In this document: in pieces, positions 29,876 to 48,051 of the stretch
Layout of the letters: every line of letters starts with the position of its first letter
Numbering within the stretch: position 1 is the first letter of the stretch
DNA from: an uncultured bacterium
GTDB taxonomy: Bacteria > RBG-13-61-14 > CAYWKU01
Direction of reading: 5' to 3'
Length of the DNA: 64,000 nucleotides
Assembly (NCBI GenBank): GCA_964459325.1
Contig: CAYWKU010000007.1
Coordinates: 83,422-147,421 of the forward strand
Notes under the pieces: generated by a model
What the model saw: only the letters and a program-made list of their open reading frames with translations
The model's database searches: none
Told to the model about the DNA's origin: nothing
Position numbers and translations under genes: made by a program

Positions 29876-30955
29876 CTATTTTCCCCCACCCAACACAACT
29901 TCTTGGAGGATTGAAGGGTAATGCCATACATCGAACAACACGCTGGCTCCTACGAAGCAGGAGTGAGTACAGGTGCAGCCTTTCCGGGATATACTTTTTC
30001 GGATGCTTTGAGCCTTTTCTCCGCGCCATATCGCGCGAAGATTGTATGATTCCTTCCTTAAGTCCCCCATCGGCTCCTCCAGCTCTTCGCAGGGGTAAAC
30101 CACCCCTTCCGGGTCTATGTAACCCACCACCCGGCCCGCCCTGCATGAGAAACGTTTCCCCTTCATCACCTCCAGCTCCAGCTTTCTGGCCCTGATTTTC
30201 GCACCCCGCAGCCATCTCCGGAAAGGCCCGCGATAAAACGGAAAATTCGACCAGTAAGTCTCAAGTTTCCCGAGCAGGTCCTCATATTCGTCAACCGAAG
30301 GCGGAGCGAGCGCCTTATCGGGAGCTTCTCCCCTGAAGAGCTCGAAGCCGTGAAAATCGGCATCCGGCATTCGAGACAACACAAATTCCATAAGCTTGCT
30401 CATGTTGTCCATGTTTCGATTCATGAGCACAGTGTTGAGGTTCAACGAAAGCCTCGGCTGCTCCCGCTTTTCTTTCGCCAAAACATCATAAGTGTCGAGC
30501 AGCCTATCGAAAGCGCCCTCAACGGCCCTGATTCGGTCGTGAACCTCACCCACCCCGTCAACGGCAAGGCTCACCGCTATCCGGGCTTTCGGGCATAATT
30601 TCAGAGTTTTCCGCACACAGTCCAGCGTTCTCTCCGGGAGCAGCCCGTTTGTGGGTATTGTAATCCGCCGCAATCCGCAATTTTGATAGTAACTCCGAGC
30701 CACCTCGGGCAAATCGTCGCGCATGACCGGTTCCCCGCCGGTAAACAAAAGCCATAACAGCGGCCCGGCGTTTCCGGCAACCAGTCGATGCTCATCGAGC
30801 GACAGCTCTTGGGTCGCCGTGTTGAGTTTCCGGTAGTTGAAGCAGGTTATGCACCGGGCGTTGCACCGCCACGTGGCGCCCAATATCAGGTAAACCGGGG
30901 GCAGGCTTTTCATGCCCAAAAGGTGTCCCGCCCCGACCGCCGCCGGTCTTATCAT
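29876..30955 (-). CDS. Radical SAM protein with C-terminal SPASM-like cysteine-rich domain
   Basis: CX3CX2C motif (CNARCITC) near the N-terminus; C-terminal auxiliary cysteines (FSCRAGR...YPCEELE...GCTCTHSCF); overlaps the upstream GT2 gene by 4 nt. Confidence 0.8.
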   Translation of the reverse strand: MIRPAAVGAGHLLGMKSLPPVYLILGATWRCNARCITCFNYRKLNTATQELSLDEHRLVAGNAGPLLWLLFTGGEPVMRDDLPEVARSYYQNCGLRRITIPTNGLLPERTLDCVRKTLKLCPKARIAVSLAVDGVGEVHDRIRAVEGAFDRLLDTYDVLAKEKREQPRLSLNLNTVLMNRNMDNMSKLMEFVLSRMPDADFHGFELFRGEAPDKALAPPSVDEYEDLLGKLETYWSNFPFYRGPFRRWLRGAKIRARKLELEVMKGKRFSCRAGRVVGYIDPEGVVYPCEELEEPMGDLRKESYNLRAIWRGEKAQSIRKSISRKGCTCTHSCFVGASVLFDVWHYPSILQEVVLGGGK

Positions 30956-31923
30956 CGCGGCCTCCTCAAAAGCTTGCCGTACTCACTCTTGGAAGGAAGG
31001 CGCAATATTCCCGTCAGCAGCCCTGCAAAGCTTACACCGTGAAGACAGGCGACGGCCCCGGCCCATTTGAGCCTGCCCGCCGATTTTGCTCCAAGGCTCG
31101 CTCTTGCCAGCAATATCGAATACGCCGCTATCGCCAACAATACAAGCGGCGGCCACTCAATCATCAGCCACAGAAGCACCGGAACCGCCGCAAGAGCCGC
31201 CCCCGACTTCCGGGTGACGTACATGCCGGGCCTCAGCCACAACAACCCCCCGTTCTGTTTTCGGAGCCGATAGCGTTGGGAAAAAAAGTCCCGCCCGAAC
31301 GGACGACGCTCATGTATGACGAAAAGGTCGGGGTCATAAATAAAATACCCCTTCGCCATTCGGCGGCAGAGGTAGATAAACTCACTGTCCTCCCCTCCGT
31401 ACCCCAGAGCTTCGTTAAAACCGCCGACGGCCTCGAAAACATCCCTGCGGACGAAGAAATTAACCAGGTGAATTTCGCCGATACGCGCCTCGTGTGACTC
31501 ACCTTTGTCACTATACGAATTTGAGCCGCTGCCGATTTTCGAGGAGAGGACGGCGTCGGTCAGCTCTTCGGCCCGAGTCTGCTCGACGGGCGCCAGATTC
31601 GGCCCTCCGCATCCCGCCGCCCGGGGGTGTTCTTCGAGCAACATCAATCCCTTTTTCAGCCATTTCCGGGGAGCGAGGGCGTCATCGTCTATAAAGGCAA
31701 GCATCTTTCCCCCGGAAACGGCCACTCCCGAATTCCTTTTGGCCGCCGGGTTCGGGCTTTCACATTCGACATAAATCACCCCCTCAGCCCGTCTCGACGG
31801 CGGGTTAGAGGCGTCATGCACAACGATTATCTCGTAATCGAAGTCCGCGTCCTGGTGGGTGAGAAACTCCAGCCGGTCATGTATGTCCTTCCGGCCGGAT
31901 GCGACTATGACGCTTGCATCCAT
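30952..31923 (-). CDS. Glycosyltransferase family 2 (GT-A fold)
   Basis: GT2-like D-x-D region (MLAFIDDDA), conserved acidic motif GYGGEDSEF, C-terminal membrane helices. Confidence 0.7.
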   Translation of the reverse strand: MDASVIVASGRKDIHDRLEFLTHQDADFDYEIIVVHDASNPPSRRAEGVIYVECESPNPAAKRNSGVAVSGGKMLAFIDDDALAPRKWLKKGLMLLEEHPRAAGCGGPNLAPVEQTRAEELTDAVLSSKIGSGSNSYSDKGESHEARIGEIHLVNFFVRRDVFEAVGGFNEALGYGGEDSEFIYLCRRMAKGYFIYDPDLFVIHERRPFGRDFFSQRYRLRKQNGGLLWLRPGMYVTRKSGAALAAVPVLLWLMIEWPPLVLLAIAAYSILLARASLGAKSAGRLKWAGAVACLHGVSFAGLLTGILRLPSKSEYGKLLRRPR

Positions 31924-31926
31924 CTA

Positions 31927-33333
31927 TCACAGCCTCAGTATCTTCAGCCCCGCGCGCGCCTGCCTGATAACTTCCCCCGGACTACGGATGGTTTTCAGCC
32001 TGCGCAGGATATATGCGGGGTTGCGATAAAAGCTTCGATACGCTCCCAGGGTAAGCTCTATCAACTCCTCCCGGGACAGGTTCTCCTCCCAAACCGGCGC
32101 CTGAAAATCCTCTCGCGGATTGAGGGCGAACTCCAGCCACGGGTCGCCGTTCCACAAACCCTTCTCCTTGCCCATCCGGTAAAGGTCGGTACCCGGAAAC
32201 GGCATAAGCAGCGAAAAATGCACGTAATCCGGCTTGAGCTCCCGAGCCAGCCGTACCGAGCGGCGCACGGTGTCGGAGGTTTCTCCCGGTGAGCCCACCA
32301 GGAAGTACGCCAGAGTGCGTATCCCGGCCTTCCGGGCGTTCTCAAAGCCGGCGCGGGCGTCGTCCACTGTTATTCCTTTCCGGAGGGTTTTCAATATTTC
32401 CGGGTCGCCGGACTCGACGCCCAGGTGTACCCGGTCGCAACCTGCCCTTTTTAGTGCTTCTGCCAACTTGATGTCGAGGTCGGTGACCCGAAGCCTTACG
32501 TCGAAAGTCACTTTCAACCCGCGCGACAATATAAGCTCGGCGATTTGCATGGCCCGCTCGCGGTCGGTGGCGAAATTGTCGTCGTAGAAAAGTATCTCCC
32601 GGATGCCAAGCCGCAGGCATCGCTCCATCTCATCCACCACGCTCTCCGGCGAGCGTGCCCTGAATTTCCTCCCCAAATGAGGCCGGTCGCAGAAAAGGCA
32701 GTTGTAGGGGCAGCCACGGCTGGACATCATGGTGGTAACCGGGTTGGCGCGGGCCAGCACCGAGGTGTAAACCCGAACATCGGTAAGTTCTCTTGCCGGG
32801 AACCGTAGCTCGTTGAGGTCTTCAATAAAGGACGGCGGAGGCCCTCTGTGTATCTCGCCATCCGCACTCCATACCGCCCCGGAAGCCTCATCGGGCCCGA
32901 CATTATTCCGAAGACAATCCACGAGTGCCGGAAGGGCCCTTTCGCCCTCTCCCGTAATCACGTAATCAACTTCCGGCAAAAATGCGGTTTCTTCCGGGTA
33001 GATGTGGGGGTGTGGCCCGCCCAGCACTGTCACCGCTCCGGCTTCTTTAGCCATCTCGCAGACCACCAACACGTCCGGCATGGTGAAGCTGAGCGCGGTA
33101 ACTCCCACGACATCGGGCGCGAAGGATGAGATTTTTTTCCGAATGGTCGCGTCGTCCAGGCCGGGCGCCTGGGCATCCAATATTGCAACCTCGTCCCGCC
33201 CGAGCCGCTCGAGTTCACCGGCCAGGTAAAGCAGGCCTAGCGGCGGATTCGCTCCCCGACCCGATTCGACCTTCTCGGGAAGAATGGACGGTATCATGCG
33301 CCCGGAGGGCGGATGTAGGAGAAGAACTTTCAC
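31927..33333 (-). CDS. B12-binding domain-containing radical SAM enzyme
   Basis: GTG start at 33333 overlapping the upstream stop (GTGA); N-terminal B12-binding-like region (VKVLLLHPP...PLGLLYLAG), radical SAM motif SRGCPYNCLFC. Confidence 0.8.
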   Translation of the reverse strand: MKVLLLHPPSGRMIPSILPEKVESGRGANPPLGLLYLAGELERLGRDEVAILDAQAPGLDDATIRKKISSFAPDVVGVTALSFTMPDVLVVCEMAKEAGAVTVLGGPHPHIYPEETAFLPEVDYVITGEGERALPALVDCLRNNVGPDEASGAVWSADGEIHRGPPPSFIEDLNELRFPARELTDVRVYTSVLARANPVTTMMSSRGCPYNCLFCDRPHLGRKFRARSPESVVDEMERCLRLGIREILFYDDNFATDRERAMQIAELILSRGLKVTFDVRLRVTDLDIKLAEALKRAGCDRVHLGVESGDPEILKTLRKGITVDDARAGFENARKAGIRTLAYFLVGSPGETSDTVRRSVRLARELKPDYVHFSLLMPFPGTDLYRMGKEKGLWNGDPWLEFALNPREDFQAPVWEENLSREELIELTLGAYRSFYRNPAYILRRLKTIRSPGEVIRQARAGLKILRL

Positions 33334-34187
33334 GGCTTGTAACGCTTGCCGATAAGGTCGGCCACCACGCCGATGGCCAGCACCTGCAGGGCCGCCACCA
33401 CCAGCCCTATGAATCCGACGCCCCAGCCTATGGCTCCAAGGTAGTGCCATGCTAAACCTACCGGTACGGCGGCGATAATGAGGATTACCGCCGCCGGCAG
33501 AAACACCCGCAGCGGGTTGAAGTAAACCAGCGTCCTTATTATCAAAACCAGCATGTTAAGAGTATCGTGGAAGGGGCGGAACTTGCTCCAGCCCTTGCGC
33601 TTGCGGTAGTTGATGGGAAGATACTCCACGTGAAACCCCTCGGATAGAAAAACCAGGGTGATGGTGGAGGTGAAAGAAAATCCCGACGGAAACAGGTTGA
33701 TATATTTGAGCGCCAAATCGCGGCGGAAAATCCTCAACCCCGAGTTAAGGTCGGGAATGTGAGTCTCACCCAGGTAATTCGCCATCCCGCCGATGGTTTT
33801 CTTAACCGCCCTTCGCAGCCACGATTCCTCCACGTGACGTCCCGTTCGCGCTCCAACCACCATGTCCGCCTCCCGGCTCATTTCGACCAGCTTCGGTATG
33901 GAGCCTTCGGGGTAGGAAGCGTCGGCGTCTATTATCAGCACCCGGTCGTAAGCGGCGCTCCTTACGCCAGTTTTCAACGCCGCCCCGTAGCCCTGGTTGT
34001 GGCCGTGGGAAATTACCCGCACTCCATCGGCGGTCGCGGCCACCGAGGCGGTGTCGTCGGTGGAGCCGTCGTCCACAACAAGAATCTCGTGCTCAATGCC
34101 GCCGAGGGCGGAATTTATCTCCTCCAGCACACCGACGATGCCGGAGGTTTCGTTGTATGCGGGCACTATGACGCTTACGCCTTCCAT
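33330..34187 (-). CDS. GT2 polyprenyl-phosphate sugar synthase-like glycosyltransferase (ArnC/GtrB/DPM1-like)
   Basis: ATG at 34187 with GGAGG upstream (ORF-track extension to 34241 overlaps the upstream gene); VSVIVPAYNE, VVDDGSTDDT, C-terminal two-helix membrane anchor. Confidence 0.8.
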   Translation of the reverse strand: MEGVSVIVPAYNETSGIVGVLEEINSALGGIEHEILVVDDGSTDDTASVAATADGVRVISHGHNQGYGAALKTGVRSAAYDRVLIIDADASYPEGSIPKLVEMSREADMVVGARTGRHVEESWLRRAVKKTIGGMANYLGETHIPDLNSGLRIFRRDLALKYINLFPSGFSFTSTITLVFLSEGFHVEYLPINYRKRKGWSKFRPFHDTLNMLVLIIRTLVYFNPLRVFLPAAVILIIAAVPVGLAWHYLGAIGWGVGFIGLVVAALQVLAIGVVADLIGKRYKP

Positions 34188-34188
34188 T

Positions 34189-36045
34189 CTATTTGCCTCC
34201 GGGGAGCTCGAAACGCGGGTTCTGCCAGAAAAACCGGTCATGGCCCGGGTATTTACGCGGCCCGACCTTAAAGGTTACCGTAGCCTTATTGAAAGATGCC
34301 GGAAGTTTTATCGTTATGGGCGTCGGATGGCAAACCCCTTCACCCGGCACGGCTTCCCCCCGGAAGGTCTCCGACCATTTCCCGGAAGAAAGGTTTACTG
34401 AAAAATCAACGCCGTCCGAAAGTGAAGGGTCGCATGACGAAGGCGCGAGCCGGGCGGCGGTTTTAAATGCCCTTTTGCCGTCCACGTGCATATCGGGGAA
34501 GCGGATGACCGACTCGGCTTTCTTCCTCGAATGATGAAGAATGCCGAACTCCGCCTCGCCGCCGAAATTTATAATCTCTGCGGTCGGGTTTTCCCACCGG
34601 CGGGTGGATTCCGGCGGCAGCTCGGCTTCATTCAGCATGTTCGCCAGAGGCATTGTTTTCGGAGGCCCGCCCCGTAACCACACCTCCGTGCCGTGCAACC
34701 GGTAGGCCGGAAACAGATTTTCGCCGCCGCTTCGCTTATTTATGGCGTCCTTAACGTAACCTACCTCCGGGTGGGATGTATCGAGTATGAATGCGCAAAC
34801 ATTCTCCGAATCTATAAATTCCCCCGGCGGCGGCTCGTTGGCCCCGACCGGGTGGAAGGTCTCGATGCCGTCGTAGTAGCGCAGGTATCCCACCGCTGCC
34901 GAGTTATAGGCTTTGCAATCGTCCTCTATCCTTTCGGAGACCATACGGGTAAGATTATAAAAGAAGGGGCTGCGCTTTTGCATGAAGCGGGCGTCGCTCC
35001 AGGCATAATAAGCGACAATAACAAGAATCAGCGCCCGGATGGCGTTTTTGCGGTACTCGTCCAGTACCGGCAGTCCCATCAGTATCGCGACGGGCGGGGC
35101 GAAGTAAAGCGCCGCCAGCGGATGAGTTTTTACCAGTTGCGGCGCAAGTATCAGGAAAAACAGCGGAATCAGCGCGTAAGCAATGAGCGCCGACGCGCTT
35201 TTCGGCGCCGCCCGCCAGGCCGCCGGGAGCCTGTGGACTCCCACGAAGACCAGCACCCATCCCGGACCGACTCCCACGAAGATGTTCGACAGAAAATCCA
35301 GCCACCCGCCCGGTTTCATGAAAGCCGCCGGGTCGCTGCGGGTTGCCGCGTGGCCCAGCACCGGTATGACCCCCACCACCGACTTCTGCCATATGAACAC
35401 GGCGGCAAGGGTTGCGGCGGCGGCAATGCCCGGCAGGAGGATGAACTTGAGGCTCCGCAGCTTCCTTTCTTCAAAAATCCCCGCCACCAGAACGGCGGGC
35501 AGGGCAAGGTATACCGTCCATTCGTACAACCCGCCGAGGGCTGCGGCGACTGTCATAATCGCCACTCCCTTCCGTGTAACCCGGCGGGTATAGCCGTAAA
35601 TCAACAGCGAGATGAAAAAGAGCGCCCCCGGCTCGTAATTGGTGGTACGCCCCGCCGTTACCGCCATGGTCATCATGGCGAAGAATATCCCCGCCGGAAA
35701 CGCCGCCCGCCGCGTGCCCGCTCTCACAAGTGCGCCCCATAGCAGCAGAGCCGTCCCAGCCCCGAAAAGGGCGCTTACCAGTCGCGAAACCCATTCGTGA
35801 ACGCCGAAAACCGAGTATAGGAAGGCATATACCAACTGAAGCAGTGGCGGATGAGCGGCGTGGTAGAGAAATTCACCCCTGAAAAACCCGAAGCCGGATA
35901 TGCCGCGGGTTACACCGAGGCCGTAAAAAAAATGAGACAGCGCCAGGGACTCCTGGAAAGCGCTGTCCAGCGGCAACACGAACGGGCCGGTCACATTCCA
36001 CAGTCTCAACAGCAGGCAGACCCCGGTAATCAGGAAGGCGCTCAA
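34189..36045 (-). CDS. GT-C fold membrane glycosyltransferase (family 39/83-like, ArnT/PMT-type) with C-terminal soluble domain
   Basis: About 10 predicted transmembrane helices in the first ~400 aa followed by a hydrophilic domain; placed next to an ArnC-like GT2. Confidence 0.6.
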   Translation of the reverse strand: MSAFLITGVCLLLRLWNVTGPFVLPLDSAFQESLALSHFFYGLGVTRGISGFGFFRGEFLYHAAHPPLLQLVYAFLYSVFGVHEWVSRLVSALFGAGTALLLWGALVRAGTRRAAFPAGIFFAMMTMAVTAGRTTNYEPGALFFISLLIYGYTRRVTRKGVAIMTVAAALGGLYEWTVYLALPAVLVAGIFEERKLRSLKFILLPGIAAAATLAAVFIWQKSVVGVIPVLGHAATRSDPAAFMKPGGWLDFLSNIFVGVGPGWVLVFVGVHRLPAAWRAAPKSASALIAYALIPLFFLILAPQLVKTHPLAALYFAPPVAILMGLPVLDEYRKNAIRALILVIVAYYAWSDARFMQKRSPFFYNLTRMVSERIEDDCKAYNSAAVGYLRYYDGIETFHPVGANEPPPGEFIDSENVCAFILDTSHPEVGYVKDAINKRSGGENLFPAYRLHGTEVWLRGGPPKTMPLANMLNEAELPPESTRRWENPTAEIINFGGEAEFGILHHSRKKAESVIRFPDMHVDGKRAFKTAARLAPSSCDPSLSDGVDFSVNLSSGKWSETFRGEAVPGEGVCHPTPITIKLPASFNKATVTFKVGPRKYPGHDRFFWQNPRFELPGGK

Positions 36046-36069
36046 TATAAGGTCGCGGGCGCTCGTTTC

Positions 36070-36987
36070 TCAATCCTCCTCGAAATATTCCTTCAGGCCT
36101 TCTTTCAAGGGTATCGTGGGCTCCCAGTCCAACTCGTTTTTCGCGCGGGTACAATCCAGTACGTTTTCTTTAACGTCCACAGGTCGGGAAGGTTGATAAT
36201 CAACCCGAGCCCGTATCCCCGAAACCTCCTCCAACAGTCCCACCAGCCTTATCAATGAGGTTCCTTCACCGGCGCCGATGTTGTAAATCGTCGAGGGCGG
36301 GGTGTCGATTATGACTTGCGCGTAAGCCCTTGCCACGTCGATAACGTGAATGTAGTCCCGTGTAATTTCCCCGTCCCCCCATATTGTGATGGTGTCCCCG
36401 CTATTTATGGCCTGTGCGAAGGCGCTTGCGGCTCCCAGCCCCTTACTTGGGTCTTGCCTTATGCCGTAAGGGTTTGAAGCGCGGAGGGCCACCCATTTAA
36501 GACCGTAAAGCTGCCCGCAAAGGGCTAGGTATTTTTCGACAGCCAGTTTATGCATCCCATACGAGCAGACCGGCTCGGTGGGATGATTTTCGACAATAGG
36601 CAATTTTCGCGCCGGGCCGTAGACCGTGCCTCCGCTGGAAGCATAGATTACTTTCTCAACACCCGCCTCGACGGCGGTCTTAAGCATGTTCACCGTTCCG
36701 GCCAGGTTGGTTTGAATGTCGGATACCGGGTCGATGTTGGATGTGGCGGGTATAGTCGAGCATGCCAGATGAACGGCGACGTCCATGCTTTTGAGGGCGC
36801 GAACCATATCGGCGGGGGAAGTGAAATCCCCTTCCATTATCTCGACTTTGCCTTTCAGATGCTCAATGCGCCACGGGTCGGCGTCCGGAAGGTCGAGTAT
36901 CCGCACCTTCACTCCTTCTTCCACCAGAATATCGGCCAGGTGAGAGCCGATAAAACCATATCCCCCCAAAATAAGAACGGAAGTCAT
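36070..36987 (-). CDS. NAD-dependent epimerase/dehydratase (UDP-sugar 4-epimerase-like)
   Basis: ILGGYGFIGSHLADIL Rossmann motif; catalytic YxxxK (CSYGMHKLAVEK). Confidence 0.85.
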   Translation of the reverse strand: MTSVLILGGYGFIGSHLADILVEEGVKVRILDLPDADPWRIEHLKGKVEIMEGDFTSPADMVRALKSMDVAVHLACSTIPATSNIDPVSDIQTNLAGTVNMLKTAVEAGVEKVIYASSGGTVYGPARKLPIVENHPTEPVCSYGMHKLAVEKYLALCGQLYGLKWVALRASNPYGIRQDPSKGLGAASAFAQAINSGDTITIWGDGEITRDYIHVIDVARAYAQVIIDTPPSTIYNIGAGEGTSLIRLVGLLEEVSGIRARVDYQPSRPVDVKENVLDCTRAKNELDWEPTIPLKEGLKEYFEED

Positions 36988-38255
36988 TAAATCCTCCGAT
37001 AAATACTTTCCATCTCGCTCGCGTGCTCTTCCATGCCGGGGACATGCATGGCACCAGGCTCCGGGGTTCCGCCGGTCAGCAGCTTTCGGAGCAGGTTGCT
37101 CAACGCTTCGGGGTCTCTTCTAGGGTAATAAAGACCCGCTTCTCCCGCGACTTCCTTTATTCCGGGCACGTCGGAAGCCACAAGCGCGGTTCGGGTCTCG
37201 AGCGCGTACAGAAGCACCAGCGGGGAGTTTTCTGCCCACAGGCTGGGCGCCGCCAGTATGTCGGTGTTTTCGTATATTCGGGCTATTTGTGTGGGGTCGA
37301 AGGTTTCCCGGTAATTCAGGGCATCGCCCAGAATTGACTTTACCTTGTCCAGGTACGCTTTTTCTTCTTCCGAACCTGTTGCGGCATACACGTTTAGCTC
37401 CCAGTTGCTCAAATCTTTCAATGCGCTCAATGCCTCGGCCAGAACGTGCAGTCCCTTGTGCCGCCTGAACTGGCCGATGAAGGTTATGCGAACCTTGTCG
37501 GAGGAACGTCGCTCAAAGCCCGAAAAAAGCGTTTTATCTATGCCGAAGGGCAGCTTTACGCCTTTCGGCCCCCATTTCGTGTACGGCCCGGCAAGGGCTC
37601 GGGTGGGAAATATAAGCCGGTCGGCCCGTTGAAGCACGCTCCGAAGATATTCAAGACGGTTTCGCATCCGCTTCAGCCCCGGGGATTTCAACTTCTCCAC
37701 CCTCTTTTCGGGTGGAAGCATCCTCAAGAAGGGTCGCTTCCAGCGCGAAATCCCTGCATAAGGGTCTTCGCCCGCAAAGCACGAAGCGCAGCGTATCCCG
37801 GCCATCGGCCCCGGGCATTCTTCGCCTTCCGGCGTGAATAATTGGCCCCATGCGCACATGTAGTGAAAGTCGGTGACGGTTACCACGGTTTTCGCCCCGG
37901 CGGATTCGGCAACCGGAAGCATTCCGGCACTCAAACCTCCCAGCAGGTAAGTGAAATGCGCCACCTCCGGCTCGAATCTGTTCACAACCTCCGCAAATCC
38001 CTCGTCAATCGTCGGGTTGCGGTAATGATGTTCGTAGTCGTTGTGGACGGAATAGGTGTTTCTGATTGTATGCACGGTCACATCGCCGTCGTAACGGGTG
38101 GATATTTCAAACTCCTTTCCCGGAGAATCCGTCCGGGTAAAGATTTCCACTTCATGACCCCTTTTCGCCAACGCTCCCGCCAGCCAGCGCGTATAAGTTT
38201 CTGTTCCCCCGAACTTTTCGGGCGGGTAACCGTGTACGGCGAGCATTACCTTCAA
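36987..38255 (-). CDS. Glycosyltransferase family 4 (GT-B fold)
   Basis: N-terminal MKVMLAVHGYPPEKFGGTETY typical of GT4; C-terminal domain with the conserved E-x7-E region; overlaps neighbours. Confidence 0.75.
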   Translation of the reverse strand: MKVMLAVHGYPPEKFGGTETYTRWLAGALAKRGHEVEIFTRTDSPGKEFEISTRYDGDVTVHTIRNTYSVHNDYEHHYRNPTIDEGFAEVVNRFEPEVAHFTYLLGGLSAGMLPVAESAGAKTVVTVTDFHYMCAWGQLFTPEGEECPGPMAGIRCASCFAGEDPYAGISRWKRPFLRMLPPEKRVEKLKSPGLKRMRNRLEYLRSVLQRADRLIFPTRALAGPYTKWGPKGVKLPFGIDKTLFSGFERRSSDKVRITFIGQFRRHKGLHVLAEALSALKDLSNWELNVYAATGSEEEKAYLDKVKSILGDALNYRETFDPTQIARIYENTDILAAPSLWAENSPLVLLYALETRTALVASDVPGIKEVAGEAGLYYPRRDPEALSNLLRKLLTGGTPEPGAMHVPGMEEHASEMESIYRRI

Positions 38256-39850
38256 CGCCGACCTCCCCGCGATGCTTCGAGCGCCTTACGGGCCTGCATG
38301 ATGGCTCTTCGTATTTGCGCATCGGGCGGGCTCAACCTGGAAGCCTCCTTGAAATTATCCAGCGCCTTTACGAATCTCCCCATCTTCAAATGTGCCAACC
38401 CCGCGTTTTCAAGCGGCTCCGCCCATCCCTGCCTGAGCTCGGAGGCTTTGAGGAAATAAAAAGCAGCGCCCCGGTAATCCTTGAAGCGGAAATGCAGCTT
38501 GCCGAGCGCATTGAAAGCGTTGGCCTGCTCGTAATCGGTAGGAGCGCCTATCTCTACCGCCCGGTTAAGGTGAGGCCAGGCGGAAACGTATCGCAGCTCG
38601 TCCTTGTACGCCAGGCCCAGGTCGTATCGGGCGCGGAACTTATCCGGCGATACCCGGACGCTTCGGCGGTGAACGGTTATCTTTGACGACCAGGTGGAAG
38701 CCACTTCGACGGCAGCCATGAGAAAAAGAGAGCATACCACGACAACTAAGGCAGGCGCCGCCTTTCGCTTGAAGGATGACGCCTCATTCCCGAAAAGCTC
38801 CCCCCCACCGAAAGCGATTATGCCCACTAACCCGACGGCGGGCATGTAAACCCTGTGCAAAAACGCAAGGTCCATGAGGGGAATTACGCCGGATTCCGGC
38901 CCGAGAGCCACCGGCATCCATATCATCAGAAACAGGGCCGGGCGGTTTTTGCGCAGCTTGTACGTCAAAATCCCCCAAACCGCTATTAACCCAACGCCCG
39001 AGATAATTACTTTCGCATCGAGCAGGCTTGTCCTCAGCACGGGATTCTGCTCAAGGGCCAAGCCCGTCGGCCACAGGAATTTTGCGATGTATCCCGGTAT
39101 GACTGTCAATTGGGTAAGGAAATACTCGTAAGCGCCGGGCAACTCCGATGAAGGGCCGAGGTACACCAGATGCCCCGAGCGCAAGACGGCGTAAATTACG
39201 AAAATTCCTCCCGCCGGAAGAACGGCTTTTATTCTTTCCCGTCCCTTCCCGTACAGAAAAGCGAGCACACATACCATTATCGGCGCCACCGCGCCGCTTT
39301 CCTTGCTCAATAGAGCGCCTACGCAAGCCAGCATCGAAATCCATAAGTACAGGTTCCTCCCCTTCCGGAGGTGCTCCAGGTATGCCAGCGCAGCTCCCAC
39401 CGTGAACATGGTGGCCAGCACCGCCGACCGGGCGGATATGTAAAACACTGAAAAGTTGATAAGCGGATTGAGGCAGAAAATCGCACTCGCCGCCAGCGCG
39501 ATTGCATCCGGGTTTTCGCGTTCGGCGAAAAGCGCCCTTACCAAGAGGAAAACCAGCAGCGAGGTTATCACGTGAAGCACGCCGTTTACCGCCTCGAAAG
39601 CCGGCGCATCGAAACCCGCGGCCTGAACGTTGGACCAGTTAAGAAGAACGGTTATCGCCCGGAAAGGACTTTGCAAAATAACGGAAACCGGAGAGCCCAC
39701 CAGCGCGGCGTTTTCGAGTATGGAAGGGTGGTCGTCCAGCACGAAAACGCCGCCCGATGCCAGGTGCACTATAAGGCCCGCAACCAGGGCGGCCAAAAGC
39801 GCGAGGTATGCAAATTTATCCCGAGGCGTCCTCACCGGCGCTTCCCGCAC
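38252..39850 (-). CDS. Polytopic membrane protein with C-terminal TPR repeats (TMTC/DUF1736-like, GT-C-type)
   Basis: About 10 N-terminal transmembrane helices followed by TPR-like repeats (YDLGLAYKDELRY, AFNALGKLHFRFKDYRGAAFYFLKASEL, ENAGLAHLKMGRFVKALDNFKEA). Confidence 0.6.
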   Translation of the reverse strand: MREAPVRTPRDKFAYLALLAALVAGLIVHLASGGVFVLDDHPSILENAALVGSPVSVILQSPFRAITVLLNWSNVQAAGFDAPAFEAVNGVLHVITSLLVFLLVRALFAERENPDAIALAASAIFCLNPLINFSVFYISARSAVLATMFTVGAALAYLEHLRKGRNLYLWISMLACVGALLSKESGAVAPIMVCVLAFLYGKGRERIKAVLPAGGIFVIYAVLRSGHLVYLGPSSELPGAYEYFLTQLTVIPGYIAKFLWPTGLALEQNPVLRTSLLDAKVIISGVGLIAVWGILTYKLRKNRPALFLMIWMPVALGPESGVIPLMDLAFLHRVYMPAVGLVGIIAFGGGELFGNEASSFKRKAAPALVVVVCSLFLMAAVEVASTWSSKITVHRRSVRVSPDKFRARYDLGLAYKDELRYVSAWPHLNRAVEIGAPTDYEQANAFNALGKLHFRFKDYRGAAFYFLKASELRQGWAEPLENAGLAHLKMGRFVKALDNFKEASRLSPPDAQIRRAIMQARKALEASRGGRR

Positions 39851-40181
39851 TTTTTTCGGCTTCCAATATGGCGATTGTCTGTGACAGGGATTTTACCTGG
39901 TCGGTCATCCGGGACATCCGCACCGAGAAGTGAATGTTAATTAACGCGAGGAACAACAGGGCAAACAGAAAAACGGTGGTGGAACTGGAGACCGCGCCTA
40001 TCAGGTGAGTCAGCCAGACCTGAAGGTCGTACCATGCGGCCAGCACAATTACGCCCGCTCCCACCGCCAGCCACAGTATGCTGAACTCCTCCTTCAGCTT
40101 CCTCCGGCGCACCAGCTCGACAATAGCCACCAGCAGCATCACTGCTACCGCCAGCGCAAATATCCTTTGTCTGGGCGTCAT
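39816..40181 (-). CDS. Small membrane protein, DUF2304-like (commonly paired with polyprenyl-phosphate GT2 genes)
   Basis: Start taken at internal Met (MTPRQRIFALAVAVMLLVAIV); 2-3 transmembrane helices; immediately downstream of an ArnC-like GT2. Confidence 0.5.
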   Translation of the reverse strand: MTPRQRIFALAVAVMLLVAIVELVRRRKLKEEFSILWLAVGAGVIVLAAWYDLQVWLTHLIGAVSSSTTVFLFALLFLALINIHFSVRMSRMTDQVKSLSQTIAILEAEKSAGSAGEDASG

Positions 40182-40194
40182 ATTCCACCTCCTT

Positions 40195-40887
40195 CTATTC
40201 CGGACGCCTGATGATAACAACCAGCACCGACAGGCTCATTTTAATTACGTAGTATAAAGGTACCAGCCCCGAGTGCATCCGCTTTCCCGGCGGCGGAGGT
40301 TTCATGTTCACCCCCACTTCCCCTATTCGGAACTTTTCCCTCAACATCATCACCAGTACGTCGGCGTCGGGAAAATCCTCCGGGTAAGCCCCCGATGCCA
40401 GCCGTTTCAGGGCCTTTCTGTTGATGGCCTGGAAGCCGGTGGTGGGGTCTGTGATTTTCTTGCGGGTGAGAATTCTGATAAGGGTTGAAAAAAAACGCAT
40501 CCCCGCTCTCCTGAGCAGGCCCGGCTTCCACTGCGAGTTCCCGAGAAACCGGCTGCCCATGCAAATGTCGCATTCCCCACCGGTCACCGGGCGAAGCAGC
40601 GACGGAATGTCGTCCGGGTCGTGCTGGCCGTCGGCATCGAGCTGCACCACCGCGTCGAAACCCTTTTCGAGGGCGTATATGTAACCGGTATGAATTGCGC
40701 CCCCGTATCCTATGTTGGCGGGCAGCCTTAGCACTTTAGCCCCGGCCATTTCTGCTACCCGTGTCGTGGCGTCTTCCGAGCCGTCGTCAACCACAACCAC
40801 CTCGTCGGCGTGTTTCGCGGCTCCGCGCACCACTTCGCCCACCCTGTCGGCTTCGTTTCGGGCCGGGATAAGCGCCATGACCTTCAT
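40195..40887 (-). CDS. GT2 polyprenyl-phosphate sugar synthase-like glycosyltransferase
   Basis: Start taken at internal Met (MKVMALIPARNEADR) adjacent to the upstream stop; the 90-aa Arg-rich ORF-track extension reads through the upstream gene; VVVDDGSED, DADGQHDP motifs. Confidence 0.8.
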   Translation of the reverse strand: MKVMALIPARNEADRVGEVVRGAAKHADEVVVVDDGSEDATTRVAEMAGAKVLRLPANIGYGGAIHTGYIYALEKGFDAVVQLDADGQHDPDDIPSLLRPVTGGECDICMGSRFLGNSQWKPGLLRRAGMRFFSTLIRILTRKKITDPTTGFQAINRKALKRLASGAYPEDFPDADVLVMMLREKFRIGEVGVNMKPPPPGKRMHSGLVPLYYVIKMSLSVLVVIIRRPE

Positions 40888-42101
40888 CCCGCCGACACCC
40901 CCACTTCGCTCCCCTGCAGGACTTTGAGGTATAGCTTTTCCGTGCGGGAAGCGATTTCGGGCCACGCCAGATTGCGGCGGATAAATTCCCGGCCCCTTTC
41001 TACTTTCTCGCGTGATTCTTCCGGGTTGTCCAGCACCGAAGCGATGGCGGCGGCCAGCTTTTCCGGTTCGCCGTAAGGCGTCACTTCGCCTATATCCGCT
41101 CCCCCTATAATTTCGCCGCAGCCGCAATCGTCGCTTACCACCACCGGGGCGCCGCACAGTATGGATTCAAACGGCACCAGCCCGAAGATTTCGTGCTCGG
41201 AGGGGTAAACCGTAACGTCGGCGTCGACGTAAAGCGCCCTCTTTTCAACGCCCCTGACCAGGCCGGTGTATGTTGTTATTTTATCCATTTTATTCGCGGA
41301 TACTTCCTCTTTCACCCTGGGAAGAAACCCCATGTCGTTACCCGCGATAACCAGCCTTACGGGGCGGCTCTTATTCAGGATGTTCACCGCCCTTACCAAC
41401 GGAATCAGGCCCTTGCGGGGGGTTATCTTACCCAGGTAGAGCACAATCGGGGTATCGTCGAGATGCCATTCGGAGCGGAACTTCCCCTTTTCGGGAATGG
41501 AAGCAAAAGCTTCGATATCCAGCCCGTTGGGGATAACGTTTATCTTTTCACGTGAAACACCCCTTTGCAGGTATTGCTCGACCTCGGAATTACTTACCGC
41601 TATCACTGCGGAAGCTCTTTTCAATGCCTTATTGAAAACGACCCCGTCCAGCGCCATCTTGATGCCCCTCTTGCGCTCGATGCGCGGGGCGGTGCCGTTG
41701 GCCGTTATTACGTAAGGGATGTTCCTCTTCCGGGCGAAAGCCGCGGCGGCAGTTTCCAGCCGATGGCGGTGCCCGTGAATGTGGATGACTTCGGCATCTC
41801 CGGCCAACTCCTCCAAAGCCTTTTTCATGCCCATCGGCAGGAAGAGTTGATGACGATAAGCGCCGCGGTTGGAAAAATTGCGCAGATAGCGAACCTTCAT
41901 CGTACCGCCTTCCATGCCGACGGTAAGTCCCCCCTCCGGGTGCCGTGAACGGGCCTGGAGGGCGTCGGTGGTTATCACGTTCACCCGGTGCCCGTCTCGT
42001 GCCAGTTGACGGCATAATTCGTAGGCCAGCCGGGGGATTCCACCGTATGCCCAGGCGGGCACGAAGTAGGGAACCACGTGTGTAACGTTAAGCTTTCGCA
42101 T
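40884..42101 (-). CDS. Glycosyltransferase family 4
   Basis: N-terminal VTHVVPYFVPAWAYGGIPR and C-terminal EIFGLVPFESILCGAPVVVSD motifs typical of GT4. Confidence 0.8.
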   Translation of the reverse strand: MRKLNVTHVVPYFVPAWAYGGIPRLAYELCRQLARDGHRVNVITTDALQARSRHPEGGLTVGMEGGTMKVRYLRNFSNRGAYRHQLFLPMGMKKALEELAGDAEVIHIHGHRHRLETAAAAFARKRNIPYVITANGTAPRIERKRGIKMALDGVVFNKALKRASAVIAVSNSEVEQYLQRGVSREKINVIPNGLDIEAFASIPEKGKFRSEWHLDDTPIVLYLGKITPRKGLIPLVRAVNILNKSRPVRLVIAGNDMGFLPRVKEEVSANKMDKITTYTGLVRGVEKRALYVDADVTVYPSEHEIFGLVPFESILCGAPVVVSDDCGCGEIIGGADIGEVTPYGEPEKLAAAIASVLDNPEESREKVERGREFIRRNLAWPEIASRTEKLYLKVLQGSEVGVSAG

Positions 42102-43059
42102 TCTTTTTACCGTGTTTGCCCGCCAGTATGGAGCTGGCTATCGGCCCTCCTACGAGCGCCACAGCCAACAGGAACACGCTGTCCACCACCGCCGCCCCGA
42201 GACCGCCCTGTACGGTATGCCCAAGTATTCCCGAGATGTAAGCCAGAAGCGGCTCCCGGAGCCCTACTCCCAGTGGAGTGAAATTTGCCATCTGTGTCAA
42301 ATATGCCGGAGGAGCCAGCAGAAATGCGCCGACAAGCTCGATGGGCTGGCCGAATGTCCTGAACACCACCCAGTAACGGGCAGCGAAAGTCGCCAGTATG
42401 CAAATTTCAAGCAAAATCAACCTGGTTATATTTGACCGGTCAGCCTTCAATACGTTCCATCCCTCGAACACGGCGGTTACGAACCGACCTATACGACCCA
42501 TGCGAAGCCGCAATCGGGGTAGGAGTATGATACCCAATGCCACAGCGGTTATGAGGCCGAACAAAAGGGGTATCTCCGGACGAACGGTCTCGGCTCCAGA
42601 CGCCAGATAGCCGGTTCCCGCCAGTCCGGCCACTCCCAGGGTCAGGGCCGTTATAACGAATCCGCCGCCGGTTATTACCGTGAACCGGTCTATGCCGAAG
42701 TTCTTTTGCTTGAAGAGATAATAAGCCAGCCCCACCGTTCCGCCCTTTATGGTGAGGGCGTTTCCGTAACCCTGCATGAGCGACAGACCGGCGCCTTCCG
42801 CGACGCCCATGTCTACCTTAAAGGACGACACCAGAAACTTAAGCCGCAAACCCAACAAGAGCCGGGTAAGGAGGTGGAGCAGGAGCAATAGCGCCAGGTG
42901 GGCCGGGTGGAAATCGAGCATTCGCGAAAAATTCTGCCGGTGGTGATAAAAGTACCAGCCCGCCGCAAGCGCCAGCACGACATAAATGGCAAGCGATATT
43001 ACCAGTCTGCGGGGTCGAGTCTCCTCCGCTCCGTCAGCTTTCGATTCGGGTTTTTCCAT
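42088..43059 (-). CDS. Flippase-like membrane protein (lysylphosphatidylglycerol synthase TM-region / UPF0104 family)
   Basis: About 8 transmembrane helices; resemblance to the LPG-synthase TM domain family often co-encoded with GT2 enzymes. Confidence 0.55.
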   Translation of the reverse strand: MEKPESKADGAEETRPRRLVISLAIYVVLALAAGWYFYHHRQNFSRMLDFHPAHLALLLLLHLLTRLLLGLRLKFLVSSFKVDMGVAEGAGLSLMQGYGNALTIKGGTVGLAYYLFKQKNFGIDRFTVITGGGFVITALTLGVAGLAGTGYLASGAETVRPEIPLLFGLITAVALGIILLPRLRLRMGRIGRFVTAVFEGWNVLKADRSNITRLILLEICILATFAARYWVVFRTFGQPIELVGAFLLAPPAYLTQMANFTPLGVGLREPLLAYISGILGHTVQGGLGAAVVDSVFLLAVALVGGPIASSILAGKHGKKNAKA

Positions 43060-43065
43060 GCGAGT

Positions 43066-43719
43066 TTATACCCAGTGGCGATATTCATGGGAGAGTATGC
43101 CCGTAACTTCCATCTGCGCCCGCTCGGGAAAGTTGGTGTCTATTATCCAGAAATCCCACCAATCCGTCATTTTCAGATAAGCGTCCCACCGCTCTTGGCT
43201 CTCTAGTTTATCGGTCGTTACTTCCTTTTTTATCAGGGGATTTTCCTTTGCCCTCAAAAGAAAGGCCACGTCCGGGGAGGGAAGGGAGCGAGCCTTGCGT
43301 TCCATGAATTTCTTGCCGCAGGCTCCGTTTTCGTAAAGCTCAGCCAGCGAATCATACAGGTAACGGTCGCAGATTACCGCCATCCCACGGTTTGAAAGTA
43401 TCTGTATGTAAGGTGTAAGCAGTAATATGCATATCCTGAAAAGAACTCTCTTCCAGATTGCGGTCAATGGATTGGAATAATCGGGAGGCGAGGTTCTTGA
43501 TTTACCCCTACCCGGCCGGAAAAGGGAAACCGTGACATTGCGCAGGCTGAGCGGATACACTTTTATCAACCGTACCGGATACCCCTTACCGACAAGGTCT
43601 TCGGCGGCCACCCTGGCCAGTCGGGTTGTACCCGAGCCTTCCACCCCGGAGAAGGTGATAACCGGCCCCCTCTTTTTCTGCACCGGCTGTCCTACCGCTA
43701 CATCGCTCAACTGTGCCAA
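43066..43719 (-). CDS. P-loop NTPase, thymidylate/nucleoside kinase-like
   Basis: TTG start; P-loop-like ITFSGVEGSGTT near the N-terminus; otherwise uncharacterised. Confidence 0.4.
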   Translation of the reverse strand: MAQLSDVAVGQPVQKKRGPVITFSGVEGSGTTRLARVAAEDLVGKGYPVRLIKVYPLSLRNVTVSLFRPGRGKSRTSPPDYSNPLTAIWKRVLFRICILLLTPYIQILSNRGMAVICDRYLYDSLAELYENGACGKKFMERKARSLPSPDVAFLLRAKENPLIKKEVTTDKLESQERWDAYLKMTDWWDFWIIDTNFPERAQMEVTGILSHEYRHWV

Positions 43720-43743
43720 TCACCCCGCGTTTTAAACATACTA

Positions 43744-45990
43744 TTACGGAACGCATCCCGGCGTGGCCTCAAAAAGCAGCCACGGCCCGGACGAACTCAA
43801 AGGTTGGAAATACTTTCCGGAATTCAAGATAGCTTTTACCGTTCGGGGATGCCACAAGTAGTATCCCCTTAGTTTGTAGCCCGGGGCCGCGTTTACCAGG
43901 AGCCGGCGACTGTCGTATTTCCGCATTATATTGCAGATAATTTCGTTGTTCCCCGCGGCCGTTACCAGCGCCGATGCGTCCCGCTCCCGCTCCGCCGAGT
44001 CCATAGCTCCTGTGGAAGGCTTAAGCCGGTCTATGACGTACACGTCCCGGTAAGCGGTCAGGCGATAACTGGTGAAAACGTCGGAAGTGACAGTGTGTCG
44101 CAGAGGCACGTCGTCCAGGAGCCCGGCGAACCTTTCGGTGTCCCATGTTACGTTTTCTTTCTTGTGAGCGTTCTCGTCGTGATGCCAGAAAAGCCCCTCC
44201 GTCGGCGCTTTGGTCATTATGAACCACGACTTGCCGGCGGCGCCCCTGAAGTAATCGGGCCGCACCGGGTACCAGGCCGCCGCCACGGCGAATACCAGCG
44301 CCGCCGCTATCAACGCGAGGCCCGCCCATCTTCGCGCCATGCCGGATAGCGCCCATATTCCCGCTCCCGCGCCGAGAGCGGCGAACATGGCCGAAAACCG
44401 CAAAGCCCGCCTCAAATACGCTACGTGAAGGGTCTTGCCGAAAATCCACGCCAGGTAGGGATGAAAAGCCACAAAACCCATGAAAAGCGTGCCCACTATC
44501 ACCACCAAGAGGGCCCGGTCACCTTTGGCGTACCTCAAAATCAGCCACGGCAAAGCCAACAGGCCAAGCACCGACCAGGGATACAGGGTCATGTCCGGGG
44601 CGGTATAAGAAAACGCCAGCGGGTGCAGCACGAAAAGCTTCGGGGTAATGAACCGGTTATACTCCCGCACCAGGCTGAACTCCTCCGGCCGCGCTCCCGT
44701 CGCTTCCATAACGCGCAATAGTGCAAATGGAGCGGATACCACTATGGCCGCGCCCACCAGGGCCGCAACTCGCTTTGCTTGCCGAGGATTGTTGGCCGCG
44801 CTTCGGTATAAAAAGGGCAACCACAAGGCGACCGGAATCATCACAAAAGCGGCGAACTCCCAGAACGACGGAGTGCCACCCACCCCCTGCACCGGGACGC
44901 CGACAAGCAGTTTATAAACGGCCCACACAACCGGGAGCACAAGCAGAAACCACCCGACCCTCCAGTTCCACCCGTATACCGGGCCGATATGCCCCCTGTT
45001 TGCCAGAAGGGTCACCACCGCCGTCATTGCAGCGGCGACTCCCGCCAGCACCCCCCACAACGGATGCACCAGGAAGGTTATCAGCACGGCGCCGGCGGAG
45101 CTTGCCAGCCTCCTCGATCCACCCTTCTGCATGTAATCATGCACAAATTTTATGCATATCGGGAAAAATATCAGCCACGCGGGGTCGGAGTTGTAGTAGC
45201 TGCACCGGCCCAACAAAATGAAACCCATCGCCGCGAAGTGGTATACTGAGTATATCACTGTAGAGGCCATCGCCGCCCGGCGCTCGAAGAAGGAGCCTGA
45301 CAAAGCGTAAAACGCCAGAATGGCCGCCGGTATGGTCAAAAAACCCGATTTTACGTACAGGGTAACCGGGTCCATCCTCAAGCCGGTGGAAATCGCGGCC
45401 CACATGAGCGCCCAGATGTTGTAGCTGTGTACCGGGTCGGAGCCTTCGTTGGCGAAAGCGATCGGAAAGTTGGCGGCAAACCCGCGAGTTACCAGCCTTC
45501 TGACCATCGTTATGTAGGTGTAGTAATCCCACTCCACCGCCCATCCGCGAAAGCTGCCCAGTTTCCAGGCGATTATTAAAGAAATGAAAACCACGGCCGC
45601 GAAGATTAACCCGACCCCGCACGGCTCCAGGTACCATCCCTTTTCCCACGTATGCTCCCGCTTTGAAAATACGAAAAACCACAAAAACAGCGCGAGCGCG
45701 ATTATCGGCATGACAATCAGCCCCGCATAAACCGGGGCCATTAATAGGAACATGGCCATCCCGACCAGCCCGAAAAGCAGGACTCCCATCACCAGGCTCA
45801 AGGGATAAGTCTCCCACGGGTCCAACGGCTCATAAGAAAGAAGTCGCAACAGAAGGTAGCCCGGAGAAACCACCATCCCGATGAAAACTATGGCTATGCC
45901 CGCCGTGCCGGACGGAAACCCGAAGAGGCATACCAGCCCCGCCAACGCGGACAGGCCGAGGGCGGCAAATATGTCGGTTTTTTTTCTCAT
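43744..45990 (-). CDS. Large polytopic membrane protein (~15 or more transmembrane helices), possible GT-C-type transferase or polymerase
   Basis: 748 aa, hydrophobic throughout with a C-terminal soluble domain; function unassigned. Confidence 0.45.
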   Translation of the reverse strand: MRKKTDIFAALGLSALAGLVCLFGFPSGTAGIAIVFIGMVVSPGYLLLRLLSYEPLDPWETYPLSLVMGVLLFGLVGMAMFLLMAPVYAGLIVMPIIALALFLWFFVFSKREHTWEKGWYLEPCGVGLIFAAVVFISLIIAWKLGSFRGWAVEWDYYTYITMVRRLVTRGFAANFPIAFANEGSDPVHSYNIWALMWAAISTGLRMDPVTLYVKSGFLTIPAAILAFYALSGSFFERRAAMASTVIYSVYHFAAMGFILLGRCSYYNSDPAWLIFFPICIKFVHDYMQKGGSRRLASSAGAVLITFLVHPLWGVLAGVAAAMTAVVTLLANRGHIGPVYGWNWRVGWFLLVLPVVWAVYKLLVGVPVQGVGGTPSFWEFAAFVMIPVALWLPFLYRSAANNPRQAKRVAALVGAAIVVSAPFALLRVMEATGARPEEFSLVREYNRFITPKLFVLHPLAFSYTAPDMTLYPWSVLGLLALPWLILRYAKGDRALLVVIVGTLFMGFVAFHPYLAWIFGKTLHVAYLRRALRFSAMFAALGAGAGIWALSGMARRWAGLALIAAALVFAVAAAWYPVRPDYFRGAAGKSWFIMTKAPTEGLFWHHDENAHKKENVTWDTERFAGLLDDVPLRHTVTSDVFTSYRLTAYRDVYVIDRLKPSTGAMDSAERERDASALVTAAGNNEIICNIMRKYDSRRLLVNAAPGYKLRGYYLWHPRTVKAILNSGKYFQPLSSSGPWLLFEATPGCVP

Positions 45991-48046: not shown

Positions 48047-48051
48047 CTTTT

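Follow-up and report, generated by a model that had tools for sequence, protein, structure and literature searches.

The characterised GT-C glycosyltransferases that bear tetratricopeptide repeats (TPRs) act on proteins; TMTC1-4 act on cadherins, and the (extended) acceptor peptide of human TMEM260 is bound by its TPR domain alone. The TMTC plan comprises 11 transmembrane (TM) helices, juxtamembrane helices in the loop EL1, the DUF1736 region as the loop that joins TM7 to TM8, and luminal TPRs, and the motifs M1 to M7 are DD, SHKSYRP, RxD, KE(T/Q)xxT, DW, PxxP and ERxxY, respectively (PMC7801869). Pseudomonas aeruginosa TfpW is a pilin D-arabinofuranosyl transferase with 11 predicted TM helices, a periplasmic TPR domain and an essential DDx motif. 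GT-Cs that act on glycans have domains of the carbohydrate-binding module type or other beta-rich domains instead of TPRs (PMC11127046). On the donor side, the DUF2304 proteins GacJ and Rv3632 bind and stimulate the polyprenyl-phosphate N-acetylhexosamine (HexNAc) synthases GacI and PpgS (bioRxiv 10.1101/180810; PMC9671496), and the mycobacterial and corynebacterial galactosamine (GalN) system consists of the epimerase Rv3634c, PpgS, Rv3632 and the GT-C Rv3779 (PMC9671496). Here we describe a predicted GT-C with a C-terminal TPR domain, below called the target, encoded in a 64,000-nucleotide stretch of DNA from an uncultured bacterium (GenBank assembly GCA_964459325.1, contig CAYWKU010000007.1, positions 83,422 to 147,421), and compare its locus with these systems. 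The window means this whole stretch, and all positions refer to it unless another locus is named.

We hold it very probable that the target belongs to the GT-C class and uses a lipid-phosphate-sugar donor. The complete statement, that it is an inner-membrane GT-C acting as the last enzyme of a three-component periplasmic module on a protein-associated acceptor, has in our judgement about an even chance of being right. [quoted passage not shown] This sugar could be a HexNAc or a hexose, epimerised by the GalE-like enzyme encoded nearby, and the lipid-linked sugar would then be flipped, possibly via the LPG_synthase_TM 'flippase-like' proteins. The target would move this one sugar to an acceptor that its TPR domain positions, the predicted catalytic loops with D39-D40, R64, R141, K183-E184, E267 and H332-R333-Y335 facing the periplasm together with that domain. 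The favoured acceptor would be a protein, either a periplasmic or secreted one that is glycosylated at Ser/Thr, or one whose existing glycan receives the sugar.

The open reading frame (ORF) of the target lies at 38252-39850 on the minus strand and encodes 532 aa from a GTG start, with a Shine-Dalgarno-like GGAAG box 9 nt 5' of it. The start shares 35 nt with the end of the upstream DUF2304 gene. At the 3' end, a GT4 gene comes next, and its TTG start overlaps the TGA stop of the target. An identical protein is already in the databases, and homologues at 69, 44, 42 and 38% identity have the same start and gene order; hence the ORF is a genuine gene. A scan of the GTDB representative genome contigs with the target gave no relative, so the source genome is not one of these representatives. 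A further scan with PmbA matched Thermodesulfobacteriota, 'Deltaproteobacteria' and Nitrospirota MAGs at just ~60% identity, a rough indication of the taxon.

Hydropathy and the AlphaFold2 (AF2) model agree on 11 long helices in the N-terminal 389 aa. The model, made from a 21-sequence alignment, has a mean pLDDT of 91.5 and a pTM of 0.89, and shows in order TM1, a 54-residue loop with short helices, TM2-TM7, a second 54-residue loop, TM8-TM11, a linker helix, three helix pairs (405-434, 439-472 and 477-506) and a long capping helix. The second loop, between TM7 and TM8, holds one amphipathic helix (240-259). Pfam TPR_1, TPR_2, TPR_11 and TPR_12 match residues 406-517 with E-values from 1.6e-8 to 1.4e-6. 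The polytopic N-terminal domain followed by TPRs, which a first-pass annotation of the sequence had read from the letters, is thereby borne out with 11 TM helices and three TPR hairpins. Further, Lys and Arg are concentrated in the cytoplasmic loops, 18 in 54 residues versus 6 in the 134 residues of the periplasmic loops, hence the N-terminus is predicted to lie inside and the loop with the DD pair, the other conserved loops and the TPR domain to be periplasmic, which is where the first-pass annotation had expected the TPRs. LptF and LptG are encoded within the window, and the host therefore has a periplasm.

The target has the polytopic membrane core of the GT-C fold (GT-C_A). The structure comparison lists two values, in unlabelled columns, for each of Pmt4 (19.7; 323), ArnT (17.4; 341), AglB (17.2; 366), ALG12 (17.1; 321), Pmt2 (16.8; 323) and STT3B (16.6; 366).

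Conservation was read from 80 family sequences, in which D39 is invariant and D40 is 97% conserved, both lying 8-9 residues past TM1; R64 and H93 are likewise invariant in these sequences, and D39 and D40 are invariant in alignments A1/A2. The target retains the consensus residues D39, D40, N47, R64, N89, H93, P129, Y137, R141, K183, E184, P190, Y243, Y254, P261, E319, S320, P324, D327, H332, R333 and Y335, and has E at position 267, where the family has D. Conserved target residues appear to correspond to the TMTC ligand-binding motifs M1 (DD), M2, M3, M4 (KE), M5 and M7, a mapping made via the bacterial relatives and not by aligning human TMTCs. The target has M1 and, from M4, the KE; of M2 it keeps R64 and of M3 R141, the acid being gone, M5 is represented by E267 with the W gone, and M7 reads L-H-R-V-Y. 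By its place in the model, the TM7-TM8 loop (EL4) would be the positional counterpart of the DUF1736 loop, though PF08409 itself has no match there.

The subfamily departs from the family consensus by H128N (HPxQT to NPLIN), E331L, H86E, the change of R383-N384 to V-A, and the loss of the M3 acid. The target is also the least conserved member of its island, which together with the loss of H128, E331 and R383-N384 would suit a catalytically dead or diverged GT-C that serves the island's other periplasmic enzymes as a TPR scaffold or chaperone. We find this highly improbable because the catalytic residues, the DD pair as well as the proposed phosphate or metal residues K183-E184, E267, H332-R333-Y335 and R64, are invariant in the subfamily. 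Conservation is also centred on the periplasmic loops, which are 41-100% identical across the subfamily versus 5-78% for the TM blocks, and the linker and TPR1 exceed the TM helices as well. Such loop-centred conservation fits an active site in the periplasmic loops, as expected of an active GT-C.

At E<=1e-3, an exhaustive phmmer search with target residues 1-392 in a library clustered at 50% identity gave 17,792 cluster representatives; 3,797 of them passed E<=1e-10 and just four passed E<=1e-30. The target lies in a small branch of a very large bacterial TMTC-like / DUF1736-TPR family. Some relatives carry the source names 'protein O-mannosyl-transferase' or 'tetratricopeptide repeat protein', and PF08409 is present in many relatives, matching 2 of the 19 that were sampled. 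A profile built from six subfamily membrane domains matches 31 of 33 PF08409-positive bacterial TPR proteins with E-values from 1e-5 to 1e-18, set for a space of 1.8 billion sequences, and the matches cover profile positions ~56-380, including the PF08409 region. The similarity to the TMTC/PMT superfamily that the first reading had supposed is significant by this profile. The metagenome scan was run with the subfamily alignment A4. BLASTP comparison with the island's other PMT_2 proteins (E 0.65 and 0.009) led us to reject recent paralogy with them.

The partner genes directly upstream bear on the donor. The top NCBIfam match of the 230-aa GT2 is PpgS with E 3e-29, at 102 bits against an equivalog cut-off of 370; its best PDB match is the DPM synthase 5mlz (E 8e-11), ArnC follows at E ~1e-6, and its homologues are 229-235 aa long. 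The GT2s next to the target belong to the DPM1/ArnC/GtrB/PpgS class, which agrees with the ArnC-like donors named in the first-pass annotation. It should be noted that the mechanically called ORF at 40195-41157 (minus strand) is too long; the GT2 probably starts at M91 (40887, giving 230 aa), as in all homologues, and this start gives a 4-nt overlap with the upstream GT4.

GT2 and DUF2304 lie directly upstream of the target in overlapping frames in six subfamily contexts (window/L001, L002/L003, L005/L006, L007/L008, L090 and L091). The triplet of a GT2 (~230-246 aa), DUF2304 and TPR GT-C is also found at relatives 26% (L096) and 24% (L097) identical to the target, in different surroundings: in L096 (3883-8873) as a compact five-gene GT2-GT2-DUF2304-GT-C-GT4 cassette flanked by housekeeping genes, and in L097 (1-12823) with the TPR GT-C in an array containing one PMT_2+TPR gene, two TPR-only genes and interleaved GT2 genes. 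These two are among six distant relatives, one more of which has a divergent GT2 neighbour, the other three standing alone among unrelated genes. At a further locus, L100, a GT2-DUF2304 pair adjoins a TPR gene that is cut and was left out of the comparisons with the target. Within the family, the GT2-DUF2304-TPR GT-C cassette has the look of a functional unit that is mobile. As the module recurs and parallels exist in GacI and PpgS, we infer that the donor of the target is a polyprenyl-phosphate monosaccharide supplied by the adjacent GT2/DUF2304 pair; that the sugar is a HexNAc is only hinted at. The GalE-like epimerase is a possible supplier of the nucleotide sugar, by analogy with Rv3634c of the PpgS system, which it parallels (PMC9671496), and one of the LPG_synthase_TM proteins may serve as flippase for the lipid-linked sugar.

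As acceptor we slightly favour a protein or a protein-bound glycan, by analogy, since the characterised TPR GT-Cs act on proteins and a GT-C with a fold like STT3/AglB is encoded in the same island. A protein acceptor is further supported by the family often being found away from glycan-assembly genes. Lipid A and free polysaccharide seem less likely than protein. Possible, if doubtful, is that the same chemistry serves a non-protein glycoconjugate (a glycolipid, lipoglycan or polysaccharide) that is built by the GT4s, flipped and decorated in the periplasm in the manner of Gtr O-antigen glucosylation, GacIJKL or PpgS/Rv3632/Rv3779, the TPR domain docking partner proteins or binding an anionic polymer. 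The strict, translationally coupled synteny in a ~17-gene island, kept down to 33-38% identity, would suit such a route, as would the five GT4s in an island with no phosphoglycosyltransferase, Wzx, Wzy or ABC exporter, a set that fits a lipid other than undecaprenyl diphosphate. The combination of epimerase, GT2, DUF2304 and GT-C mirrors the mycobacterial GalN system, and both characterised DUF2304 systems decorate cell-wall polysaccharides. The TPR domain itself is short (3 repeats, 143 aa versus a family median of 201 aa) and strongly basic (net +13, pI 10.4); it is basic in 6/6 subfamily members (pI 9.2-10.4), which would suit this route, and the wider family has a median net charge of ~+1. 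On the other hand, no characterised glycan-acting GT-C has a TPR domain, the L096 cassette stands alone between housekeeping genes without glycan-assembly genes, and the oligosaccharyltransferase (OST)-like GT-C of the island points to proteins. The protein O-glycosylation raised in the first-pass annotation is a possible outcome, with the polysaccharide targets of the two characterised DUF2304 systems speaking against it.

The OST-like protein of 748 aa had no Pfam, NCBIfam or PDB sequence match, and a word-indexed search of 5.8 billion clusters gave 12 homologues only. Sequence-level links to STT3/AglB were searched for and none was found, the likeness being one of fold alone. A conserved W616-D617-x-E619 lies ~44 residues past its last TM helix, roughly where OSTs carry WWDxG; this is a lead, not a test. 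The most distant homologue (32% identity) is encoded in the L100 island, which again has the module of GT2, DUF2304 and TPR gene. At 14891-17218 of L100, between two LPG_synthase_TM genes and near the 757-aa OST-like gene, lies another Pfam-less gene; its product has 775 aa and may be a paralogue.

Could the target itself be an OST that moves a preassembled lipid-linked oligosaccharide en bloc? We consider this improbable, as the target has neither WWDxG nor an alpha/beta C-terminal domain, its C-terminus being all TPR, the 748-aa protein is a better OST-like candidate, and the coupled GT2/DUF2304 pair belongs to a type whose products are monosaccharide donors. Assignment of the target to STT3/AglB/PglB was accordingly rejected on the missing WWDxG, the lack of an STT3 Pfam match and the all-helical TPR C-terminus.

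In the Haloferax Agl pathway the glycan is built on polyprenyl monophosphate, AglB transfers it, and AglD/AglR/AglS add the final sugar from a lipid-phosphate donor (PMC3871713). The island resembles this logic in its AglJ-like GT2s, GT4s, methyltransferase, OST-like GT-C and lack of a phosphoglycosyltransferase, and we lean slightly to a protein-associated acceptor because of this resemblance. Extending it, the ~30-kb island might as a whole be a bacterial counterpart of archaeal Agl protein glycosylation: the glycan would be built on polyprenyl monophosphate by the AglJ-like GT2s, the GT4s and the methyltransferase, flipped by LPG_synthase_TM and transferred en bloc to proteins by the 748-aa GT-C, while the TPR domain of the target would recognise the glycoprotein and the target would add a sugar from undecaprenyl phosphate in the manner of AglD/AglR/AglS, or start a separate O-glycan. 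Assembly on polyprenyl monophosphate would explain the absent phosphoglycosyltransferase. We regard this extended scheme as unlikely; if true, an uncultured lineage related to Thermodesulfobacteriota and Nitrospirota would glycosylate proteins by a new route, and a bacterial TMTC-like enzyme would have been assigned a role for the first time.

The first-pass annotation had also left room for lipid A as a substrate, and this found no support. That the target is an ArnT-like enzyme which transfers sugar from undecaprenyl phosphate to lipid A or the lipopolysaccharide core appears extremely improbable to us: the likeness to ArnT is at fold level (11% identity, with no PDB sequence match), ArnT is without a TPR domain, no ArnT NCBIfam model matched at E<=0.1, and no ArnA, ArnB, ArnD or ArnE/F-type genes were found in the island. 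The lipid A reading was rejected on the lack of arn genes in 29.9-61.9 kb and of an ArnT family match.

Returning to the target as a lipid-phosphate-sugar-dependent GT-C with a protein-associated acceptor, several observations weigh against it. The Pfam model PF08409 (TMTC_DUF1736) did not match the target at E<=0.1, whether the full length or the membrane domain was searched. PMT_2 (PF13231) matched residues 91-223 of the full-length target with 25.6 bits (E 1.6e-5), below the cut-off of 26.1; for the membrane domain alone it gave a borderline 26.4 bits (E 8.9e-6). PDB sequence searches returned TPR proteins only for the full-length target, and no match for the membrane domain alone or for a 19-sequence profile. 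Hence, of the TMTC-type architecture proposed in the first reading, the 11 TM helices, the helix-bearing TM7-TM8 loop, the non-cytoplasmic TPR domain and the 31/33 profile matches stand, and the DUF1736 match does not; among the profiles it had named, the TPRs were found and PMT_2 was borderline. The lost family residues (H128, E331, R383-N384 and the M3 acid) could signify altered or weakened chemistry, and the low conservation of the target within the island may reflect relaxed constraint. One subfamily locus, L004, is without GT2-DUF2304 directly upstream. The five GT4s of the island are cytoplasmic and require acceptors of lipid or glycan type, no gene of the island encodes a protein that is a candidate acceptor, and both characterised DUF2304-dependent systems modify polysaccharides, not proteins. 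Finally, the literature search gave no bacterial family member with a measured activity, donor or acceptor.

The target is encoded within a dense minus-strand glycosylation island of ~30 kb (window 29.9-61.9 kb). Around the target the genes run in the order GT4, 230-aa GT2, DUF2304, target, GT4, GalE-like epimerase, PMT_2 GT-C, membrane-anchored GT2, B12 radical SAM gene, GT2 and radical SAM/SPASM gene. The island holds five GT-C-type proteins, four GT2s resembling polyprenyl-phosphate-sugar synthases plus one other GT2, five GT4s, two LPG_synthase_TM 'flippase-like' proteins, a methyltransferase, an epimerase, a dTMP-kinase-like P-loop protein and six radical-SAM or B12-binding genes. In Pfam and NCBIfam scans the island gave no match to a phosphoglycosyltransferase, to Wzx or Wzy, to an ABC exporter or OPX, or to Arn genes, and none to the dedicated flippase families GtrA, Wzx, MATE and SMR.

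The same gene order is present in L002, L090, L007 and L091, whose target homologues are 69, 42, 35-38 and 33% identical, and downstream of the target there is in every case the second GT-C with its GtrB/AglJ-like GT2. Among the syntenic genes the target has the lowest conservation, or ties with the dTMP-kinase-like gene, at 69/42/35/33/42% identity versus neighbour medians of ~78/60/53/55/57% (L002, L090, L007, L091 and L004, respectively); the best conserved are DUF2304 and the GtrB-like GT2.

Table 1. Positions in the window of the target, its parts and neighbouring genes
Feature	Position	Strand	Size and basis
Glycosylation island	~29876..61937	-	
Target: predicted GT-C glycosyltransferase with C-terminal TPR domain, bacterial TMTC-like family	38252..39850	-	532 aa
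Membrane (predicted catalytic) domain, aa 1-389, 11 TM helices, N-terminus predicted cytoplasmic	38684..39850	-	Hydropathy, AF2 helices, positive-inside count
Predicted periplasmic loop EL1, aa 32-85, with D39-D40 (nt 39731-39736), N47 and R64	39596..39757	-	Conservation; corresponds to TMTC motifs M1 and M2 (PMC7801869)
Predicted periplasmic loop EL4, aa 225-278, TM7-TM8, with helix 240-259, Y243, Y254, P261 and E267	39017..39178	-	AF2, conservation, TMTC topology
Predicted periplasmic TPR domain, aa 390-532: conserved linker, three hairpins (405-434, 439-472, 477-506), capping helix	38255..38683	-	
DUF2304 small membrane protein (GacJ / Rv3632 family)	39816..40181	-	121 aa (gene call in L001); PF10066 E 5.5e-23
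Soluble GT2, putative polyprenyl-phosphate sugar synthase of PpgS/GacI/DPM1 type	40195..40887	-	230 aa; PF00535 E 2.8e-24
GT4 upstream of the GT2	40884..42101	-	
LPG_synthase_TM 'flippase-like' membrane protein	42088..43059	-	PF03706 E 1e-16; TIGR00374 flippase-like domain weak
Orphan GT-C, fold closest to the oligosaccharyltransferases STT3/AglB	43744..45990	-	748 aa; conserved island gene
GT4 glycosyltransferase whose start overlaps the target stop (translational coupling)	36987..38255	-	Pfam; position kept in every subfamily locus
GalE-like NDP-sugar 4-epimerase	36070..36987	-	PF01370 E 2.6e-48; TIGR01179 GalE E 4.7e-45, below cut-off
Second GT-C (PMT_2, 34189-36045) and GtrB/AglJ-like membrane-anchored GT2 (33330-34241)	33330..36045	-	Pfam, NCBIfam, synteny
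GT-C-type protein	50827..52377	-	
GT-C-type protein	56826..58589	+	

At 54000-62000 of the window, the part of the island where the plus-strand PMT_2 gene and additional B12 radical SAM genes lie, GC content is 0.45-0.49 versus 0.55-0.61 elsewhere. Each syntenic locus that was read stops short of this part or is without it, and it may be a later addition to the island. The B12 radical SAM ORF at 31927-33450 (minus strand) overlaps the upstream GT2 by ~120 nt and probably has a later start, its homologues being 456-468 aa long. Outside the island, two minus-strand genes encode possible envelope proteins, one of 519 aa with a FlgT_N domain and a Pro/Glu-rich linker (24342-25901) and one of 834 aa, a clostripain-family (C11) peptidase with a Chlamydia PMP repeat (6445-8949); neither is tied to the island by synteny.

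On its own the gene is unremarkable within an established class of enzymes, and the island with its orphan OST-like GT-C is more unusual. The bacterial TMTC-like GT-C/TPR family is very large, yet our literature search found no experimentally characterised member. The present locus offers a concrete setting for it, since a donor-making GT2 and DUF2304 adjoin the transferase and the module recurs in distant relatives. If the acceptor is a protein, TPR-guided protein glycosylation in the style of TMTC and TMEM260 would extend to bacteria; if it is a glycan, the target would be the first TPR-guided GT-C that decorates glycans.

Compared with known systems, the target has just 9-11% identity to the solved GT-C structures of ArnT and fungal Pmt1/2/4; ArnT is without a TPR domain, the Pmts carry a MIR domain, and the context of the target is neither arn nor pmt/ppm. 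Human TMEM260 shares the 11-TM GT-C core and a luminal TPR domain, but has a Rossmann-like domain between the two, uses dolichyl phosphate mannose (Dol-P-Man) as donor and has no detectable sequence relationship with the target. TfpW is alike in architecture, with a cytoplasmic N-terminus, 11 TM helices, a loop-1 DDx and a periplasmic C-terminal TPR domain, and itself uses a polyprenyl-phosphate sugar donor and a protein acceptor. It differs in its length of 646 aa, in that it also polymerises its glycan, and in adjoining its substrate gene pilA, whereas the annotation of the island and window gives no pilin gene near the target.

For the donor module the parallels are the streptococcal GacI/GacJ/GacK/GacL and PpgS/Rv3632/Rv3779, in which a soluble ~230-aa GT2 with a DUF2304 partner makes a polyprenyl-phosphate HexNAc that a GT-C transfers outside the cytoplasm; as in the PpgS system, epimerase, GT2, DUF2304 and GT-C are four linked parts here too. 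Their GT-Cs are, however, without a TPR domain, and their acceptors are wall polysaccharides (rhamnan and arabinogalactan).

The GT105 protein O-mannosyltransferases TMTC1-4 have about 8-10 TPR repeats, a substantially longer TPR region than the three repeats of the target. Their EL4 is also longer (~75 aa versus ~54 aa), and in its motifs the target has lost the M3 acid, has E for D in M5 with the W lost, and has L for E in M7. Its donor would come from a dedicated GT2/DUF2304 pair and not from a general Dol-P-Man pool. With these enzymes and the bacterial PF08409-TPR proteins the target shares the 11-TM plan, the helices in EL1, the helix-bearing TM7-TM8 loop and a non-cytoplasmic TPR domain, and, judged via the bacterial relatives, the motif residues that it appears to have in common with the TMTCs are the DD pair of EL1, one R each from M2 and M3, KE from M4, an acidic residue at M5 and R..Y from M7.

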